DNA from: a virus
Length of the DNA stretch: 40,943 nt
Direction: 5' to 3' (one strand)
IMG/VR virus record: IMGVR_UViG_3300037445_000039
Location: 1 to 40,943 of that record
Under the pieces are notes generated by a model. That model was given only the letters and a program-made list of their open reading frames with translations. It was not told the origin of the DNA and made no database searches. Positions 788 to 16,150 of the stretch are shown one piece after another (the stretch's first letter is position 1; every line of letters starts with the position of its first letter). The position numbers and the translations under genes are program-made.

Positions 788-1864
788 CTACGAGGCTTTC
801 CGGCGAGTGCCCCGTTTCGGTGCCCCGCTTCGCTGCGCGGCGGCCAGCTTGGGCAGGGCCTTGCTAATGTGCTGCGAGATGGCGCCCATGATGTAGCGCC
901 ACGACGTGCGCGGATCGCGATGATCCAGCAATTCTTGCGCAGCGCGCTGCTCGCTGACGCGATAAGCCTCCGTCGCAAACGAGTGGCGAAGATCGTACGG
1001 CCGTCCGATCTTGACGCCTGCGGCCTGACAGGCCAGAATCCACGCTTTCCGTAGCGAGCTGGTGGAGAAGGTCCCCGTGGCCTTCGCGGCCAGCCACGCC
1101 TTGATCGCGTCCACACCCGCCGGCGTCAGGGGATACCAGCGCCCTTTCGTCCCGCCGCCTTTCCGTCGCCCCTGCACGAAGACTCGGCGCCGGTGGAGCT
1201 CGACGTGGCCTTGGTCGGGGTCGATGCGCATGATCTGCGCCGGCGGAATGCCGGTGTAGGCGATGAGCCCGAGTCGCGCCGGACTCTTCTTGCCGCGGAT
1301 CTTGGAGAGGATCCGTCGGATGGTCGCGTAGGTGTAGCCGCGCGGTTGTGGGTCAGGCTCACGGAATTTTTTGATGGCGCGGACGGGATTTTCCGCGGTC
1401 GGTCCGTCTAACGTCGTGTAGAGGTGGAGGATGGCCGTGCGCCGATGGTTCACGGTGCTGGCGGCGTAGGGCTTTTTCTCCTTGCCCCGCGGTTCCGTCG
1501 CCCAGCGGTGCAGGACGGCGGCGATCTCGGCCCCGGTCACCGTGTGGCGCCGACGGTGCCCAAACTCTGCGCTCCACAAGGCGATGTCCGCGGCGCGCAT
1601 CACGTAGCTGGGCATCGCCTTCACCGCCTCGAGGTACCGGCGCGCGTCATCCGCGAAGGTGCCTGGCGTGGTCGTGCGCGCCTTGTGCCGTCGCCGCAGT
1701 TCGACCCGCCGCTCCTCCTGCCACGCCTTCATCGCCTTCACGTCGGCGGTCAGCGGATAGCGTTTCTCCTCGCGGTGCTTCGCGATTTCCACGCGGACGG
1801 CGTAGCCCAGATCGTCGCGGAAGATCCCCCGCGCGACGCGGTGGCGGCGACTCTGGCGCGGCAT
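788..1864 (-). CDS. int: Tyrosine recombinase / phage integrase
   Basis: 358 aa. C-terminal RPYDLRHSFAT...LLDHRDPRTSWRY gives the R, HxxR and Y catalytic signature. Adjacent to the tRNA-fragment attP. Confidence 0.95.
   Translation of the reverse strand: MPRQSRRHRVARGIFRDDLGYAVRVEIAKHREEKRYPLTADVKAMKAWQEERRVELRRRHKARTTTPGTFADDARRYLEAVKAMPSYVMRAADIALWSAEFGHRRRHTVTGAEIAAVLHRWATEPRGKEKKPYAASTVNHRRTAILHLYTTLDGPTAENPVRAIKKFREPDPQPRGYTYATIRRILSKIRGKKSPARLGLIAYTGIPPAQIMRIDPDQGHVELHRRRVFVQGRRKGGGTKGRWYPLTPAGVDAIKAWLAAKATGTFSTSSLRKAWILACQAAGVKIGRPYDLRHSFATEAYRVSEQRAAQELLDHRDPRTSWRYIMGAISQHISKALPKLAAAQRSGAPKRGTRRKAS
807..827 (+). promoter_or_regulatory. attP right arm: two more GTGCCCCG repeats (807, 820) inside the 3' end of int
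   Basis: GTGCCCCGTTTCG at 807 and GGTGCCCCGCTTCGCTG at 819, in the same orientation as the left-arm copies. Confidence 0.6.
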
Positions 1865-11114: not shown

Positions 11115-11624
11115 ATGGCGGAGAACATCGAGCACGTCGTGAATCGAAACGGGTGGCCTGCGGGGCCGTGGGATGCGGAGCCTGAGAATCGCGTGGAGTG
11201 GCGCCACGAGGGCGTGCCTTGCCTGTTGGTACGCCATCCGCACCATGGCCACTGGTGCGGGTATGCCGCCGTTGAGCCGGGGCATCCGTGGCACGGCAAG
11301 GGCTACGACGATGTGCCGGTCGATGTCCACGGTGGTCTGACGTATGCGGACAAGTGCGGTGCCATTCCGGCGGTCTGCCATCTGCCCCAGCCCGGCGAGC
11401 CGGATGATGTGTGGTGGCTCGGGTTTGACTGCGCCCATGCGTACGACCTGTCGCCCGGCACGCAGCGGTATGGCGCTGTGTCAGACGTCTATCGTGACCG
11501 GCGCTATGTGCAGCAGCAGACGGAGGCGCTCGCCGACCAAGTGATTGCGATGCGCACGCTCGCCGCTGCGTCAATTGACACTGATCGTGGAGAGGTGCAG
11601 ACTACAGCGGTCCGGCTTGAGTGA
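11115..11624 (+). CDS. Conserved phage protein (WCGYAAV..HPWHG...VHGGLTY...WWLGFDCAH motifs), function unknown
   Basis: 169 aa. AGGAG upstream. Confidence 0.75.
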   Translation: MAENIEHVVNRNGWPAGPWDAEPENRVEWRHEGVPCLLVRHPHHGHWCGYAAVEPGHPWHGKGYDDVPVDVHGGLTYADKCGAIPAVCHLPQPGEPDDVWWLGFDCAHAYDLSPGTQRYGAVSDVYRDRRYVQQQTEALADQVIAMRTLAAASIDTDRGEVQTTAVRLE

Positions 11625-12085
11625 GCCGTGCCGCGCCCTGCGTTGTGTAGCGGGGTCGCGTCCCGCATCCGCATCTCCACGAGGCAATGCGGGTGCGTTG
11701 AAGCGGCTGGAGTGTCGTGCGGATGGCGTTTTTGCCCTCAGGGTGACTCGCCGGGGCCGCAAGGACGCCAGCCACTTGAGCGCACCTGTAGGCTCCTGCG
11801 GGCTACACGGTCCCCGCGCGCGTCGCTTCGGTTCCCCGCGCTGCGGGCCGCACGGACCACACCGATCAGCTGAGACAGACCTCATGAGTGCGCACTTAGA
11901 TCACATTGGACGGCGGCTCCTGCGCTCCGCCCGTAAAGACCGGCAGTGTTGGTGCCGACGTCATCCACTGAGGCGGCGCCCACCACTCAGCAGGTTCTAC
12001 GTGCGCTGGCAAACTCATGGAAACATCGCAACAGTGGCAATAGCAGAGGGTTATGTCACTCGGAGGGAACCTACGGAGGGTGGAC

Positions 12086-12289
12086 ATGCCTGAGTCTTCT
12101 CCCAACACGGCCCGTTCTACAGGAGCGCAGGCCACAGACCGCACGTATACGGCTGACGAGGTGCGCGAACTGATGGCCGCTGCGTGGTTCGAAGGGCGCG
12201 CGGCCGCGGCTGACATCGGGGAGCTGCTTCGCCGGTGTGACCGCGATGTGGATGGCATCCTCGCCGCGCACGAGGGCGACCGTGGCTGA
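12086..12289 (+). CDS. Hypothetical protein (67 aa), first gene after the second large gap
   Basis: GGAGGG lies 6 nt upstream of the ATG at 12086. Confidence 0.65.
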   Translation: MPESSPNTARSTGAQATDRTYTADEVRELMAAAWFEGRAAAADIGELLRRCDRDVDGILAAHEGDRG

Positions 12290-12749
12290 CGACCAGCCCC
12301 GCATCGAACGCGCCAAGCCGGTCGGCCGCCCGCCCCTCACCCTCCCCGACCGCCTCACCGTCCACGCGCTCCACGCCCGCGGCTACAGCGATGCGCAGAT
12401 CGCTCGCGCCCTCAACCTCCAGCCGTCCCAGTGCCGTAGCGCCCTGGACGACGCCCGCGCCGTGCTCGAAGCCAGCGCCGTCGCCCTCGTCACCGACTAC
12501 CTCACCGCCTCCGATATCGCCGCCAGAAAGGGCGACCACCGCCCCGCCCGCGATATGCTCGACCGCCTCCACGTCACCGAGCCTACCCCCGTCGAACAGA
12601 CCACCGTGGGCATCGCCGTCCAAATCAGCGGCTTCACCCTGCCAGGCCTCCCCGTGCAGCTCCAGAACAGCCAGCTGCCGCAGGGCGCACCAGCCCCAGC
12701 CATCGACGTGGTCGCAACCAACGCGCGCAGTACGGAGACCAACGAATGA
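12282..12749 (+). CDS. HTH protein, candidate terminase small subunit (or late regulator)
   Basis: GTG start overlapping the upstream stop codon. GRPPLTLPDRLTVHALHARGYSDAQIARALN is an HTH motif. ...ARKGDHRPARDMLDRL resembles TerS helical cores. Confidence 0.6.
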   Translation: MADDQPRIERAKPVGRPPLTLPDRLTVHALHARGYSDAQIARALNLQPSQCRSALDDARAVLEASAVALVTDYLTASDIAARKGDHRPARDMLDRLHVTEPTPVEQTTVGIAVQISGFTLPGLPVQLQNSQLPQGAPAPAIDVVATNARSTETNE

Positions 12750-13105: not shown

Positions 13106-13334
13106 CTGCCGTCGCGTTACAGTCTGGCGGCCTGTCGTGACCTCTGTGCGCAGGGCTGAGCCACGGCTGGTAATCGAGGAGCCGCTGGACGATAGCCCGA
13201 CACCTTCGCCAGCGAAACCGCAGGCTCCAAGCGAAACACAGCCGGAACAGGCCGAATCACCCCTCGGGTCGCATAAGACACGTTATGTTAACTCACAAGA
13301 TGCAGGCAAGTGCTGATGCTGCAACAGCTTAGCG

Positions 13335-13363
13335 ATGACACATACACCAACGCTGGTTATGTT
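13335..13363 (+). promoter_or_regulatory. Candidate sigma70-type promoter: ATGACA, 17-nt spacer, TATGTT
   Basis: Lies in a low-GC (about 47%) island. The -10 element sits inside the repeated motif GGTTATGTTAACT. Confidence 0.4.
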
Positions 13364-13464
13364 AACTGTGTCGGTGGTTCGACAATGCGCAGAGATGCGC
13401 GGGAGTGGCGAGCCCCGATCGCCCAGCGCCAGCCGAAGGGGCCAGGCCGGCGCGCGACCCGGAC

Positions 13465-13515
13465 CAGGGGCCCCGGCCCTCGAGCACGGGCCCGGAGTGC
13501 CTGTAATTTTTTGTT
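13465..13515 (+). terminator. Candidate intrinsic terminator: long imperfect GC hairpin followed by TAATTTTTTGTT
   Basis: CAGG..CCGGCCC / GGGCCCGG..CCTG pair with about 11 bp, followed by a run of six T at 13507-13512. Confidence 0.45.
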
Positions 13516-14424: not shown

Positions 14425-14675
14425 CTGACGAGGAGCTGCAGGCGATTCGGGCACGGCATCAGCATGACCACGTCGAGGATGGTGGGGTCGCCTGTCCGTG
14501 GTGCGAGCAGGACGTGCCCGCGCTCCTCGCCGAAGTCGAACGGCTCAAGGCCGCGCTGACGACGGCCTACAACGAAGGCTGGGAATCCTGCTGCGATCGT
14601 GCGCTCGCGACGATGCCGGAACGCGAAGAAGCGCGACGGGACGCGACGATCACCGCAATTCTGAACGGCTCATGA
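14421..14675 (+). CDS. Hypothetical protein (84 aa) with CPWC and a coiled coil
   Basis: GAGGAA upstream. ATGA-coupled to TerL. Confidence 0.65.
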   Translation: MTDEELQAIRARHQHDHVEDGGVACPWCEQDVPALLAEVERLKAALTTAYNEGWESCCDRALATMPEREEARRDATITAILNGS

Positions 14676-16150
14676 GCACGGGATTCCTCGAGGGCGGCGA
14701 GGTGCGCATCAACGGCAAGGTCGTCTACCAGCCGTTCGCGAAGCAGGTCGCCTATCACAACAGCCCGGCGCTGTATCCGCTCTACGGCGGCTCGAAGGGC
14801 TGCGGCAAGTCCAAGGCGCTCCGCTGGGATCACTACCTGCCGTCGCTCGCCGTCCCCGGGATGAAGTCGCTCATCCTGCGGCGCAAGTTGGTGGACCTGC
14901 AGCGCTCACATCTCCGATTCGTCCCTGAGGAGGCGCAGCTCGTCGGCGCGCGCTGGGTCCCGTCCGATGTCGGTGCCGGCGTGCTCTACTTCCCCAACAA
15001 AGCGCTCATCGAATTCGGCCACTGCCAGCACGAGCAGGACATCGAGCAGTATCTGTCGGCGGAGTACGACCGCGAATCGTTCGACGAAATCGTGACCTTC
15101 ACCGAGTATCAATACCTGATGATCGGCTCGTGCTGCCGCACGACCATCCCGGGCCTCATCCCGCGGATCGGCGGCGCCACGAATCCCGGCGGCAAGGCCG
15201 CGCTCTGGGTCAAGCGCCGGTGGATCACGAAGGACCTGACGGTCGATGACGACGAGGACTATCGGCCCGAGGATTACCACTACGTGCCGGCGCTGCCGAC
15301 CGACAACCCGCACCTGAACTGGGCGCAGTACATGCGCCAGTTGAACCGCCTGCCGCCCGAAATGCGCCGCGCCTACCGCGATGGCGATTGGGACATTTTC
15401 ATCGGCCAATTCTTCCCCGAGTTCCGCCGCAACCCGCGCCCCGACAAGGACGGCGTGCTGCAGCCGGCGCACGTCAGGGAATTCGACTACGCGCCCAAGG
15501 ACTGGCCGCGCTACGGCGGCCTCGACTGGGGCTACAGCAGCGAGGGCGCCTATCTTTGGGTCGTGCAGCACCCCGACGGGTTCCTGGAAGTCGAGGACGA
15601 ATACATCTTCAACGGTCCGCGCCGCGACAAGCAGATCGCCAAGGAGGTCGCGCAGGAGATCGTCCGCCGCAACGTGGCGCGCGGCATCCGTGTCCGCCGC
15701 ACCTACGCCGATCCGTCGATGGACGAGAAGCGTGGCCACGAGACGCACGAAAGCTACTTCGACACGTTCCGCAAGCACGGTGTCCCGCTCGAACGCGGCG
15801 ACAATGATCGCGTGCAGGGCCTCGCCCGCATGCGCGCGTGGCTGCGGAATCGTCCCGATGGCCAGCCGTTCTTGCGCGTGCATCCACGGTGCACGTACCT
15901 GATTCGCACCTTCGGCGAGGTCGTGATGGATGAACAGGAACCGGAAGACATGGACAGTGACGGTCCCGATCACGCGCTCGATGCGCTCCGCTACGTGGTG
16001 GCCGCGCGGCCGCAAGCGCCGGGGGCGCCGGCGCCGGTCGCCTACCCCGCGGGATCGGCCGGCGCGCTCAAGCAGCAGATCATGGCCGCCGAACACGGCC
16101 GGCGCGTGCTGGGGAGCGAGTCGGTTCGCCGGCGGCCGTACGCGTACTGA
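14672..16150 (+). CDS. terL: Terminase large subunit
   Basis: 492 aa from MSTGFLEGG. Walker A YGGSKGCGKSK. A nuclease-type acidic C-terminal half. Followed by the portal gene. Confidence 0.9.
   Translation: MSTGFLEGGEVRINGKVVYQPFAKQVAYHNSPALYPLYGGSKGCGKSKALRWDHYLPSLAVPGMKSLILRRKLVDLQRSHLRFVPEEAQLVGARWVPSDVGAGVLYFPNKALIEFGHCQHEQDIEQYLSAEYDRESFDEIVTFTEYQYLMIGSCCRTTIPGLIPRIGGATNPGGKAALWVKRRWITKDLTVDDDEDYRPEDYHYVPALPTDNPHLNWAQYMRQLNRLPPEMRRAYRDGDWDIFIGQFFPEFRRNPRPDKDGVLQPAHVREFDYAPKDWPRYGGLDWGYSSEGAYLWVVQHPDGFLEVEDEYIFNGPRRDKQIAKEVAQEIVRRNVARGIRVRRTYADPSMDEKRGHETHESYFDTFRKHGVPLERGDNDRVQGLARMRAWLRNRPDGQPFLRVHPRCTYLIRTFGEVVMDEQEPEDMDSDGPDHALDALRYVVAARPQAPGAPAPVAYPAGSAGALKQQIMAAEHGRRVLGSESVRRRPYAY

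Follow-up and report, generated by a model that had tools for sequence, protein, structure and literature searches.

To our knowledge, few RNA regulators of temperate-phage development have been described (put, c4, the P4 CI RNA and antisense RNAs of the sar/oop type) and all of these come from phages of enteric bacteria. C4 is a structured small RNA that lies upstream of the genes it represses, on the same strand and transcript. It is about 77 nt long, and its exposed loops can pair with a complementary box located at the ribosome-binding site (RBS) of the first downstream gene: loops a' and b' have the targets a2 and b2 plus upstream copies, a1 and b1, and loop and target co-vary between related phages, from which specificity arises. 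RNase P excises C4 from its precursor, and C4 then controls icd-ant (antirepressor) in trans, which results in immunity. The put RNA of phage HK022 is about 70 nt long and has two stem-loops. The C4 antisense RNA belongs to the immI region of phages P1 and P7 and is catalogued as Rfam RF01695 (Citron & Schuster, 1990, as cited in PMC8201110).

The locus described here lies in a 40,943-nt stretch of viral DNA (IMG/VR record IMGVR_UViG_3300037445_000039, positions 1 to 40,943), which we call the window. It resembles C4 in that there is a leader upstream of the genes and on the same strand, and in that the loop of one hairpin (P4) is complementary to a box (M2) at the RBS of the gene starting at 12086, with which it covaries; the arrangement of the sequence suggests that leader and genes are co-transcribed. 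In contrast with C4, the leader folds into a four-way junction of about 170 nt, to which a variable arm is added, there is one supported loop-target pair and no upstream decoy of the target (M2 is unique in the window), and there is no match to the Rfam C4 model. The downstream genes are also different, encoding a 67-aa protein and a helix-turn-helix (HTH) protein in place of icd and ant. The features of the locus are listed in Table 1.

Table 1. Coordinates of the leader RNA, its predicted promoter and the downstream features (positions in the window)
Feature	Position	Strand	Description
Sigma-70-type promoter, predicted	11575..11603	+	-35 TTGACA 11575-80, 17-nt spacer, -10 CAGACT 11598-603
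Structured leader RNA	11604..11859	+	Full-length match to covariance model R1; core of ~170 nt plus variable arm
P1, 5'-terminal hairpin	11613..11628	+	CGGCTT/GAGCCG, loop GAGT; final 3 nt overlap P0
P0, 5' strand CCGTGC	11626..11631	+	Pairs with GCACGG 11850-11855; closes the four-way junction
P2 hairpin	11632..11660	+	11632-41 with 11650-60; T11656 bulged; 8-nt loop GTTGTGTA (11642-49)
Invariant 5' segment TCCCGCATCCG-NN-TCTCCACGAGGCAA	11661..11687	+	Identical in 12/12 except the NN dinucleotide
P3, long variable hairpin arm	11688..11790	+	Contains TGCGGATG and the T5 run
Invariant 3' junction segment AGGCTCC-NN-CGGGCTACACGGTC	11791..11812	+	3' strands of GAG/CTC, Pa and Pb; includes GCTACAC
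P4 hairpin	11813..11847	+	11813-22 with 11837-47; apical loop TCGCTTCGGTTCCC (11823-36)
Variable ORF slot between RNA core and M2	11884..12093	+	In the window a 69-codon orphan ORF, doubtfully coding
Box M2 GGAGGGAACCTACGGAGGG	12062..12085	+	GGAGGGAACCTACGGAGGG at 12062-80; P4-loop target GGGAACC 12065-71; Shine-Dalgarno GGAGG 12075-79
Box M3 CCTGAGTCTTCTCCCAACACGGC	12089..12111	+	Nucleotide-level conservation regardless of translation
First conserved operon genes	12086..12749	+	67-aa protein 12086-12289; HTH protein 12282-12749

The original prediction had singled out 11625 to 12085 as a gap between genes. This gap is real: the upstream gene stops at 11624, and no well-supported start follows until the ATG at 12086, which is preceded by GGAGG. 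The ORFs within the gap lack the coding signature of the genome, with GC3 values of 0.72 (11628-11873) and 0.54 (11884-12093) in comparison with 0.84-0.87 for the HTH and TerL genes. Within the RNA core GC content is flat over the three codon phases and no coding frame is conserved among homologues.

The family sample comprises 16 loci, which represent 12 distinct sequences of about seven types, all from uncultivated phages. Searching the window with the covariance model R1 gives one strong match (168 bits, E = 1.5e-40), the next best scoring 14 bits. The fold begins with a 5' hairpin, P1, and continues into a four-way junction formed by P0, P2, the Pb/Pa/P3 arm and P4; it includes five covarying helices, and the nucleotides of the junction and internal loops are invariant. 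The model-based alignment has 98.1% of its cells paired, with compensatory changes in 23 of the 40 pairs, which none of 500 shuffles reached. In an alignment made with MAFFT only, 94.7% of cells are paired (84.4% after shuffling), there are 20 compensatory pairs (8.0 +/- 1.7 in shuffles), and sliding the partners by 1-3 columns lowers pairing to 32-56%. RNAalifold independently recovers the same helices de novo. Pairing falls to 89.1% when the - strand is read, and there are 46 G.U cells as against 3 A.C cells; the RNA strand is therefore the + strand. Single-sequence folding is uninformative because of the GC content here, the window folding no better than shuffled sequences (z = -1.57) and L029 giving a z value of -2.47. 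These data make it very probable that there is a real structured RNA in the gap and, on sequence comparison, this + strand leader is a previously undescribed family.

P1 forms in all eight distinct versions despite their differing sequences (-8.5 to -11.7 kcal/mol), and its 3-nt overlap with P0 makes it and the outer 3 bp of P0 mutually exclusive. P0 is 97% paired, with compensatory changes in L044 (CTGTGC/GCACAG) and L048 (CCGTGT/ACACGG). Six of the ten pairs of P2, which is 98% paired, have compensatory changes, as have six of the ten pairs of the P4 stem. Three 5' strands lie in the invariant 5' segment, namely those of Pb (CCG 11663-65, which pairs with 11808-10), Pa (TCCGCA 11668-73, with 11797-802) and GAG (11681-83, with 11793-95). 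Pb and GAG/CTC are predicted by RNAalifold and never vary in sequence. The variable dinucleotide covaries perfectly with its partner (CA/TG, GG/CC or CG/CG), the pair C11685-G11791 becomes U-A in two sequences, and GCTCC..CGGGCTACACGGTC on the 3' side is unchanged in 12/12. At the base of P3 seven of the eight pairs covary. Its interior is unrelated even between close relatives and ranges in length from 16 to 125 nt, with remainders of 0, 1 or 2 on division by three, so that the reading frame shifts. P3 is nevertheless always a near-perfect hairpin (-42 to -67 kcal/mol), reduced in L052 to a stem of only 5-6 bp (-6.9 kcal/mol); the P3 extension is apparently freely replaceable. A pairing of the P2 loop with CUAC of M2 or with the invariant GCUACAC is possible, but it shows no covariation and is mismatched in several members.

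The motifs to which the original prediction drew attention are all present where it placed them: GTGTAGC (11645-51), GCTACAC (11802-08), the two copies of CCGCAT (11663-74), ATGCGGG (11687-93), TGCGGATG (11718-25), the T5 run (11729-33), TCCCCGCGC at 11811 and 11833, and the palindrome AGTGCGCACT (11887-96). Several of these nucleotides do belong to the fold, the second CCGCAT being the 5' strand of Pa, ATGCGGG the 5' strand of P3 and GCTACAC part of the invariant junction segment, but the pairings that had been proposed for them are not upheld. Comparison of the relatives shows that those helices are not conserved; the long-range helix between GTGTAGC and GCTACAC shows zero covariation, and 4 of 12 relatives have a mismatch at one of its positions. 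What had been read as direct repeats of TCCCCGCGC are the two strands of P4. The palindrome AGTGCGCACT and a further motif at 12049 exist as described but are not conserved.

There is a predicted promoter in all 12 family members, with a -35 of TTGAC(N) or TTGTCA, a spacer of 17-18 nt that is variable in sequence, and a -10 of NANNNT ending 0-6 nt ahead of position 1 of the model. In the window the promoter sequence predicts a transcription start at about 11610, and a palindrome, GTCAATTGAC (11570-79), overlaps the -35.

Downstream of the RNA core, an ORF of about 200 nt intervenes before M2 in five members. In close relatives the start context and stop of this slot are shared and the sequences between them are unrelated. 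The 69-codon ORF in the window has no Pfam or PHROG family match and no homologue was found for it. In L041 the slot (11884-12093) contains a DUF551 gene, so that a homologue does carry a bona fide gene in the 3' 200 bp of the gap, but not in the RNA core. The conserved RNA and its target box flank a hot spot where unrelated small genes swap in and out. An anti-CRISPR/Aca-type locus, in which variable small ORFs are followed by a conserved HTH gene, was considered and set aside; nothing was found in its favour, and the RNA would be left unexplained. Beyond M2, box M3 encodes the N-terminus of the 67-aa protein in the window and there is a similar sequence in the untranslated leader of L044, L047, L048 and L054. 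A hairpin between M2 and M3 that would hide the start codon is unstable (z = +1.9) and, on inspection, not kept in L047.

The GTG start of the HTH gene overlaps the preceding stop. The distance from the RNA core to the start of this gene is 77-98 nt in L043, L044, L046 and L052 and 137-138 nt in L047 and L048. The HTH protein has sub-threshold Pfam HTH matches only and consists of a generic HTH plus a long helix; a PDB profile search and a Foldseek search with an AlphaFold model gave generic HTH matches, none of them informative. The protein may resemble small-terminase motifs. The downstream proteins match HTH_38, HTH_23 and PHROGs of unknown function only, and none has a match to the Ant, KilA or Icd families.

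The HTH protein has 19 homologues and each contig recovered for them has the RNA upstream. Relatives of the 169-aa gene upstream of the gap are found at 28 IMG/VR loci; the RNA is absent from all 28, and the element is therefore not linked to this gene. The window shares two blocks with L029 at 100% identity; in the flanking coding DNA identity is about 81%, and the two differ in their upstream gene. RusA and nin-type genes are located upstream in relatives, with no conserved Q-like gene adjacent.

There are no close relatives among 50,697 GenBank phages (megablast, blastn) and no match to the element in this set. TerL is at most 33% identical to that of any deposited phage, and no annotation is therefore transferable from these. 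Rfam 15 (4227 models, including C4, riboswitches and self-cleaving ribozymes) gave, at the gathering score, only a tRNA-like match at 727-796 in the window. At E <= 10 there were two chance matches only (13-16 bits) between 11500 and 12150, and at E <= 5 there was nothing at the element in eight relatives. An exact-pattern scan with GGCTCCTGCGGGCTACAC found chance coding matches plus L039, and a scan of IMG/VR with GCTCCNNCGGGCTACACGG found nothing further. One genome scan and one metagenome scan with the invariant 22-mer yielded domain V sequences of group II introns and chance matches in coding DNA, and nothing else.

There is a second level of covariation, between the P4 loop and M2. GGTTCCC (11830-36) in the apical loop is complementary to GGGAACC (12065-71), and every family member has a single copy of M2 downstream of the core. 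The Shine-Dalgarno GGAGG lies 6 nt ahead of the ATG at 12086 and M2 adjoins both. Loop and M2 are paired in 87% of cells, in comparison with 76.3 +/- 2.3 in shuffles (0/500), and four of the seven pairs have compensatory changes, the variants being GGUUCCC/GGGAACC, GGUCCCC/GGGGACC and GCCCCC/GGGGGC. RNAduplex finds M2 to be the best downstream site for the loop in 9 of the 12 sequences, and in the window the duplex reaches over GGAG of the Shine-Dalgarno (-16 kcal/mol). Registers are shifted in three members: those of L047 and L054 are off by one, and pairing in L048 requires a bulge. Pairing between C-rich loops and G-rich boxes is promiscuous: the matrix of cognate and non-cognate loop/box energies is not diagonal, and a slide of +1 still leaves 74% paired. 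Independent covariation events between loop and M2 are few (3-4 lineages) because there are only 12 distinct sequences of about seven types. The 3' strand of P4 was also considered as a mimic of a CRISPR type I-E repeat (an RNA anti-CRISPR), which is ruled out by covariation favouring the long P4 stem over a repeat-like local hairpin.

It is likely that this RNA is a cis-regulatory leader of the operon, and it probably sets the timing of operon expression. The reading that we favour, tentatively, is that the gap contains a promoter and the 5' leader of an operon that extends from 12086 past the HTH gene in the direction of the terminase genes, and that this co-transcribed leader would occlude the RBS at 12086. 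The RNA would be transcribed from its own promoter along with the genes under its control. The pyrimidine-rich apical loop of P4, CUUCGGUUCCC, would pair with the purine box M2 (GGGAACC-UAC-GGAG), including the Shine-Dalgarno of the first conserved gene, either as a long-range pseudoknot in cis or, following processing, as an antisense RNA in trans. This pairing would bar ribosome entry, and polarity would reduce expression of the HTH gene and of later genes. Whether the loop is presented would be decided at the invariant four-way-junction core by a factor, which could be a protein, RNA polymerase or a small ligand. Occlusion of the RBS by the P4 loop, taken as a claim of its own, is plausible but somewhat doubtful. 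In the short-leader relatives there is no obvious start codon after M2 and the HTH gene begins 55-106 nt beyond it, so RBS occlusion may not fit these members. In the window type, the slot of about 200 nt between core and M2 makes for a weaker case for a simple cis pseudoknot.

As a counterpoint to occlusion, the elaborate invariant junction exceeds the needs of a simple antisense loop. Such invariant cores have repeatedly proved to be binding sites for ligands, proteins or polymerase. It is conceivable, although we consider it rather unlikely, that the leader represents a new class of large phage RNA with a complex fold, the core of which would directly bind RNA polymerase (as put does), the ribosome or a small ligand, or would be catalytic. 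It would then need no protein to act as a master switch into the late (packaging) programme, with the swappable P3 and the covarying loop and box providing phage-specific addressing.

One specific form of polymerase binding is processive antitermination, in which the nascent leader would bind its own RNA polymerase and bring about read-through of downstream terminators into the packaging and structural genes with no phage protein. As with HK022 put, the element is promoter-proximal, would act in cis on its own operon and has no dedicated adjacent protein gene, and the genome has a temperate lambdoid style. The element directly follows the promoter and occupies the place of the late promoter, qut and tR' of lambdoid phages, and there is no adjacent conserved Q-like gene. 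The locus is like the late leader of lambda PR' (qut, 6S RNA, tR') in lying after replication and nin-type genes and before packaging genes, with a promoter that looks constitutive and a non-coding leader after it; it is unlike it in having no Q-like gene and in that the leader, which here is highly structured and conserved, does not end in a conserved terminator. The insertion of unrelated ORFs between the element and the conserved genes is tolerated, as a modification carried by the polymerase would predict, and the invariant unpaired nucleotides could serve as a contact surface for a protein or polymerase. A terminator-like hairpin with T6 is found at 13486-13514, 1.6 kb downstream and ahead of the terminase region, and is conserved in four members (the window, L029, L040 and L041); the site is weak, however (6 bp, 7-nt loop), and the same scan did not find it in L044, L046, L048 and L052. 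We regard antitermination of this kind as unlikely, since a four-way junction of 170 nt has neither the two-stem-loop form of put nor any sequence similarity to it, and since the covariation of the P4 loop with M2 has no counterpart in put and is left unexplained.

The core could instead be a riboswitch-like sensor that binds a small ligand or host factor and so sets the pairing of the P4 loop with M2, its expression platform, to time expression of the HTH regulator. The layout is typical of an aptamer, with covarying helices around invariant junction and internal loops and a peripheral arm, P3, of free length. The element is in a 5' UTR and has a loop complementary to the RBS region, as in the pseudoknot riboswitches that sequester the RBS (SAM-II, preQ1-II/III types), and the exclusion between P1 and the outer part of P0 provides a possible switch. 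In contrast with these riboswitches, the platform can be 200 nt away from the aptamer, past an inserted ORF in five members. No Rfam riboswitch family is matched even at E <= 10, the phylogenetic range is very narrow and the neighbouring genes suggest no ligand, and we find a riboswitch distinctly unlikely.

A catalytic or processing RNA is less credible still. This could be a new class of ribozyme or a module for RNase III or RNase P that frees a stable small RNA from the mRNA, and in its favour are the complex fold, the invariant junction nucleotides and P3, which as a near-perfect duplex of 20-45 bp is a type of substrate for RNase III. Self-cleaving ribozymes are also abundant in phage genomes. 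Against this, no known ribozyme family is matched, the long duplex is dispensable, as L052 indicates, and nothing points to a cleavage site; such a role is improbable.

An element acting as DNA (pac/cos, an origin or an array of protein-binding sites) would suit a position upstream of packaging genes, and a degenerate group II intron fragment on the minus strand was suggested by 11662-83, where that strand fits 20/20 specified positions of a 22-nt pattern (actinobacterial domain V junction plus 5' strand). Both are very improbable. The asymmetry between G.U and A.C indicates a + strand RNA, and the compensatory changes keep pairing rather than sequence. For the intron, there is no Intron_gpII match at E <= 10, a reverse-transcriptase ORF is lacking, as is the second half of domain V, and about 1-5 chance matches are expected per 20-mer of this composition in 1.2e12 positions, several unrelated coding matches having been seen.

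Finally, the attenuator originally proposed, in which the CCGCAT tandem would alternate between mutually exclusive partners, one of them forming a T5 terminator, is almost certainly wrong: the complementary segments and the T5 run do exist in the window, but these helices are 76-92% paired with no compensatory change, CCCGCAT/ATGCGGG (76% of cells) breaks wherever its 3' side varies and competes with the P3 base, with which its 3' nucleotides do covary, the terminator half (TGCGGATG plus T5, 11718-33) lies inside the hypervariable P3 arm and is common to the window and L042 only, and in none of the members did a terminator scan detect an intrinsic terminator, with its GC hairpin and U-run, inside the element. 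The attenuation mechanism is thus unsupported; the part of the original prediction that stands is that the gap is non-coding and contains a structured + strand RNA of a regulatory type.

If the leader does regulate the operon, it would add to the known RNA regulators one that is structurally far more elaborate, from uncultivated high-GC phages, found by sequence alone and well supported by covariation. Its loop-target pair is defined and open to testing, and its invariant core is compact. The covariance model can be used to annotate the element, which would spare gene callers the spurious ORFs there. As to the host of the phage, the window gives two clues, a tRNA-Arg(CCG)-like attachment fragment and a GC content of 65%.

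The gap between the upstream gene and the next convincing start codon (11625-12085) has flat GC over the three codon phases. As the original prediction held, the ORFs in the gap lack the GC3 signature of the genome (0.72 and 0.54 against 0.84-0.87), and the motifs it listed are all present where it had placed them. The fold of the window sequence alone is no better than that of shuffles (z = -1.57), so single-sequence evidence decides nothing.

The HTH protein encoded downstream is 86% identical in the viral contig L029. This contig and the window share two blocks, 11594-11697 and 11783-11888, at 100% identity; the intervening 85 nt are unrelated, the adjacent coding DNA is only ~81% identical and the gene upstream of the element differs. 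The contigs of 19 HTH-protein homologues found by search were taken as the family set, and the element lies upstream of the HTH gene in every homologue contig having DNA. These 16 loci from uncultivated phages (designated L029, L040 and so on) give 12 distinct sequences, all metagenomic, on which the comparison rests. The element is absent from 28 loci encoding relatives of the upstream 169-aa protein and it therefore belongs with the downstream genes.

In a first alignment, made with MAFFT after removal of the P3 interior, 94.7% of 474 cells (one pair in one sequence) are paired in comparison with 84.4% in shuffles (0/500 reach this value), and both sides have changed in 20 of the 40 pairs (8.0 ± 1.7 in shuffles). 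When the 3' partners are slid by 1-3 columns, pairing is 32-56%. The same helices were predicted independently by RNAalifold, with the additional pairs CCG/CGG (11663-65 with 11808-10), GAG/CUC (11681-83 with 11793-95) and C11685-G11791. A covariance model built from the alignment has full-length matches (121-175 bits) only in family loci and a single match in the window, 11604-11859 (168 bits). Aligned to this model, the full-length sequences have 98.1% of cells paired and compensatory changes in 23/40 pairs. There are 46 G.U cells and 3 A.C cells, so the RNA is read from the + strand, which is the gene strand. The core is non-coding, because the differences in P3 length shift the reading frame among relatives. 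Public gene calls include ORFs that cover the element, namely minus-strand ORFs of 81 and 101 aa in the contig of P0002, a 178-aa ORF in L054 (2296-2832) and, in P0011, a long N-terminal extension; the GC-rich non-coding RNA has probably misled the gene callers here.

Taken together, the alignments show a structured leader RNA on the + strand, representing a new family, behind a conserved putative promoter. The promoter-like pair is found at a fixed distance in 12/12 members, with a spacer of variable sequence. A perfect 10-bp palindrome, GTCAATTGAC (11570-11579), overlaps the -35 hexamer and is a possible operator for a dimeric regulator; in the relatives GTCA(A/G) is kept upstream of TTGAC, but the halves are 4-7 nt apart. 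P1 forms in all eight distinct versions despite their different sequences, and the two variable nucleotides of Pa covary perfectly with their partners (CA/UG, GG/CC, CG/CG). The P3 interior is swapped wholesale between relatives, from 16 nt (L052) up to 125 nt (L029), and P3 is a near-perfect hairpin in every case.

Features of the window in and around the leader RNA
Feature	Position	Remark
Integrase-sized ORF	788-1864 (-)	adjoins tRNA-like fragment 727-796
Upstream gene	ends at 11624	169 aa, PHROG 2164
Promoter-like pair	11575-80 and 11598-603	TTGACA, 17 nt, CAGACT
P1 hairpin	11613-28	at predicted 5' end
P0	11626-31 with 11850-55	
P2	11632-41 with 11650-60	loop GUUGUGUA
Invariant strand		UCCCGCAUCCG-NN-UCUCCACGAGGCAA
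Pa	11668-73 with 11797-802	
P3	11688-11790	base covaries
Second invariant strand		GCUCC-NN-CGGGCUACACGGUC
P4	11813-22 with 11837-47	apical loop 14 nt
Slot ORF	11884-12093	between RNA core and M2
M2 purine box	12062-80	GGAGGGAACCUACGGAGGG; carries Shine-Dalgarno of gene 12086
Next convincing start	12086	ATG, GGAGG before
Large terminase (TerL)	14498-16150	

The P3 arm occurs in a few module types that are common to phages which are not each other's closest relatives: TTGACCGTGGGCT...AGCCATCG.TTCA is found in L041 (2379-2450) and L048 (2728-2792), and GCGTGTTCCCCCGAACCT in L043 (2734-2837) and L046 (2743-2849). This suggests recombinational exchange of the arm, or a specificity residing in the arm itself.

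The original prediction proposed attenuator-like or antiterminator-like logic here, in which a CCGCAT tandem would form two mutually exclusive pairings, one of them with a T5 terminator. Comparison with the relatives refutes this specific model. For CCCGCAT/ATGCGGG the paired share is 76% of cells, and pairing is lost where the 3' side has changed; the nucleotides of that side belong to P3 as its 5' strand, with 11785-90 as their covarying partner. The alternative half, TGCGGATG with the T5 run, sits in the replaceable P3 interior and is common only to the window and L042, and no terminator-like site was found inside the element in any member. As the helices are not maintained, the T5 half is replaceable and an internal terminator is absent, attenuation is unsupported. 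In the proposed enclosing helix, GTGTAGC/GCTACAC, the two sides are mostly complementary only because both hardly vary; compensatory changes are lacking, and 4/12 members have a mismatch at one position. This pairing could be a tertiary contact of the P2 loop with the junction. The prediction thus led to a structured RNA that is real and had not been described before, although the reasons given for it were wrong.

The distance from the core to the HTH start is 77-98 nt in L043, L044, L046 and L052, 137-138 nt in L047 and L048, and 394-468 nt in the window, L029, L040, L041 and L042 (L054 is similar, 447 nt). The 394-468-nt stretch holds an unrelated small ORF and then a 59-73-aa gene. In the window, L029, L040, L041 and L042 these slot ORFs all begin at the same place, in a common context (GACAGAC-N-NCATG or AATATG), and their stop overlaps ATG 12086; they differ in sequence in phages that are otherwise near-identical. 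The L041 ORF encodes a DUF551 protein and the others are orphans, including that of the window (GC3 0.54), for which a search found no homologue. The slot, flanked by two conserved RNA elements, resembles an insertion hot spot of the moron type.

M2, the second of these elements, is present in every member as a single copy downstream of the core. A further box, M3 (CCTGAGTCTTCTCCCAACACGGC, 12089-12111), shows nucleotide-level conservation. The N-terminus of the 67-aa protein (MPESSPNTA) is encoded by M3 in the window, and M3-like sequence falls in the untranslated leader in L044, L047, L048 and L054. M3 may be another RNA-level element. Pairing of M2 with M3 was tried and is not stable. The most likely start of the HTH gene is GTG 12282, which overlaps the stop of the 67-aa gene (GTGGCTGA, 12282-12289) and suggests translational coupling of the two; the mechanical ORF start, 12237, lies upstream of where the HTH homologues begin.

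M2 has in its 5' part a sequence complementary to the 3' part of the P4 apical loop, and changes in the one go with changes in the other. Loop and box are GGUUCCC/GGGAACC in the window, L029, L040, L041, L042 and L044, GGUCCCC/GGGGACC in L046, GCCCCC/GGGGGC in L043 and L052, GC(U)CCCC/GGGGGC in L047 and L054 (register shifted by one) and GGUCCUC/GAGGA(A)CC in L048. In a pairing-blind alignment containing few independent lineages, 87% of cells are paired in comparison with 76.3 ± 2.3 in shuffles (0/500). Both sides have changed in 4/7 pairs, and slid partners give 30-74%. When RNAduplex was given the whole downstream stretch, M2 was the best site of the loop in 9/12 sequences, and in the window the duplex runs on over the Shine-Dalgarno GGAG (11 bp, 3-nt bulge, -16 kcal/mol). 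The matrix of cognate and non-cognate loop/box energies is not diagonal, because C-runs and G-runs pair promiscuously.

From these patterns we infer a function for the RNA, in which the leader would regulate the operon that it heads. The loop-box pair suggests that the ribosome-binding site of the first conserved gene is occluded, which could occur through a long-range pseudoknot or, in the case of a processed RNA, by antisense pairing in trans. The invariant junction suggests a bound partner. The proposed occlusion logic is that of pseudoknot riboswitches and of the c4 RNA of P1/P7, which is described as lying upstream of its target in the same transcript (PMC8201110, citing Citron & Schuster 1990); the likeness to c4 is in design only.

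Put-like antitermination by the leader is a serious rival to occlusion. The element is at the position of a lambdoid late leader, no Q-like gene adjoins it, inserted ORFs are tolerated, and a terminator-like hairpin with T6 (13486-13514), conserved in the window, L029, L040 and L041, precedes the next gene block (13557 onward, then TerL). The available tests place the element in none of C4, put, any riboswitch class or any ribozyme class: Rfam 15 had no match to it in the window or eight relatives, even at permissive thresholds, and blastn had none in GenBank phages. Group II intron identity was rejected. A 22-nt invariant-core pattern on the minus strand (window 11662-11683) matches the domain V region of actinobacterial introns (loci L055-L143) at 20/20 specified positions, but only one domain V strand (junction and 5' strand) is matched, there is no model hit or reverse transcriptase, the pairing statistics favour the opposite strand and unrelated chance hits occur at about the expected rate. 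Genomes of Streptomyces, Solirubrobacterales and Acidimicrobiia are rich in such introns (up to eight matching loci in one MAG), and we judge the match, though striking, to be a coincidence that the copy number of the introns has amplified.

The repeat GTTATGTTAAC occurs in two exact copies (13282-13292 and 13356-13366), 74 bp apart, in a lower-GC gap; next come the hairpin ACGGGCCCGGAGTGCCTGT with T6, a ribosome-binding site and ATG 13557. L040 and L044 also have the repeat pair, with the same spacing. The short operon of the leader probably ends in the region 13282-13514, which would also hold a regulated late promoter or operator. The GGTTATGTCACT motif at 12049, listed in the original prediction, has only GTTATGT in common with the repeat.

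The window (65% GC) has the gene layout of a temperate tailed phage, with almost all genes on the + strand from ~2.2 kb onward. It has no DNA-level relative among deposited phages, and TerL is at most 33% identical to that of any of them. The tRNA-like fragment (minus strand) matches Rfam tRNA at 40.6 bits and is not called by ARAGORN; on visual inspection it comprises the 3' two-thirds of a tRNA-Arg(CCG), with anticodon arm, T arm and acceptor end CGCGCCA. As it abuts the integrase-sized ORF, the fragment probably represents the attachment site of the phage or a prophage junction.
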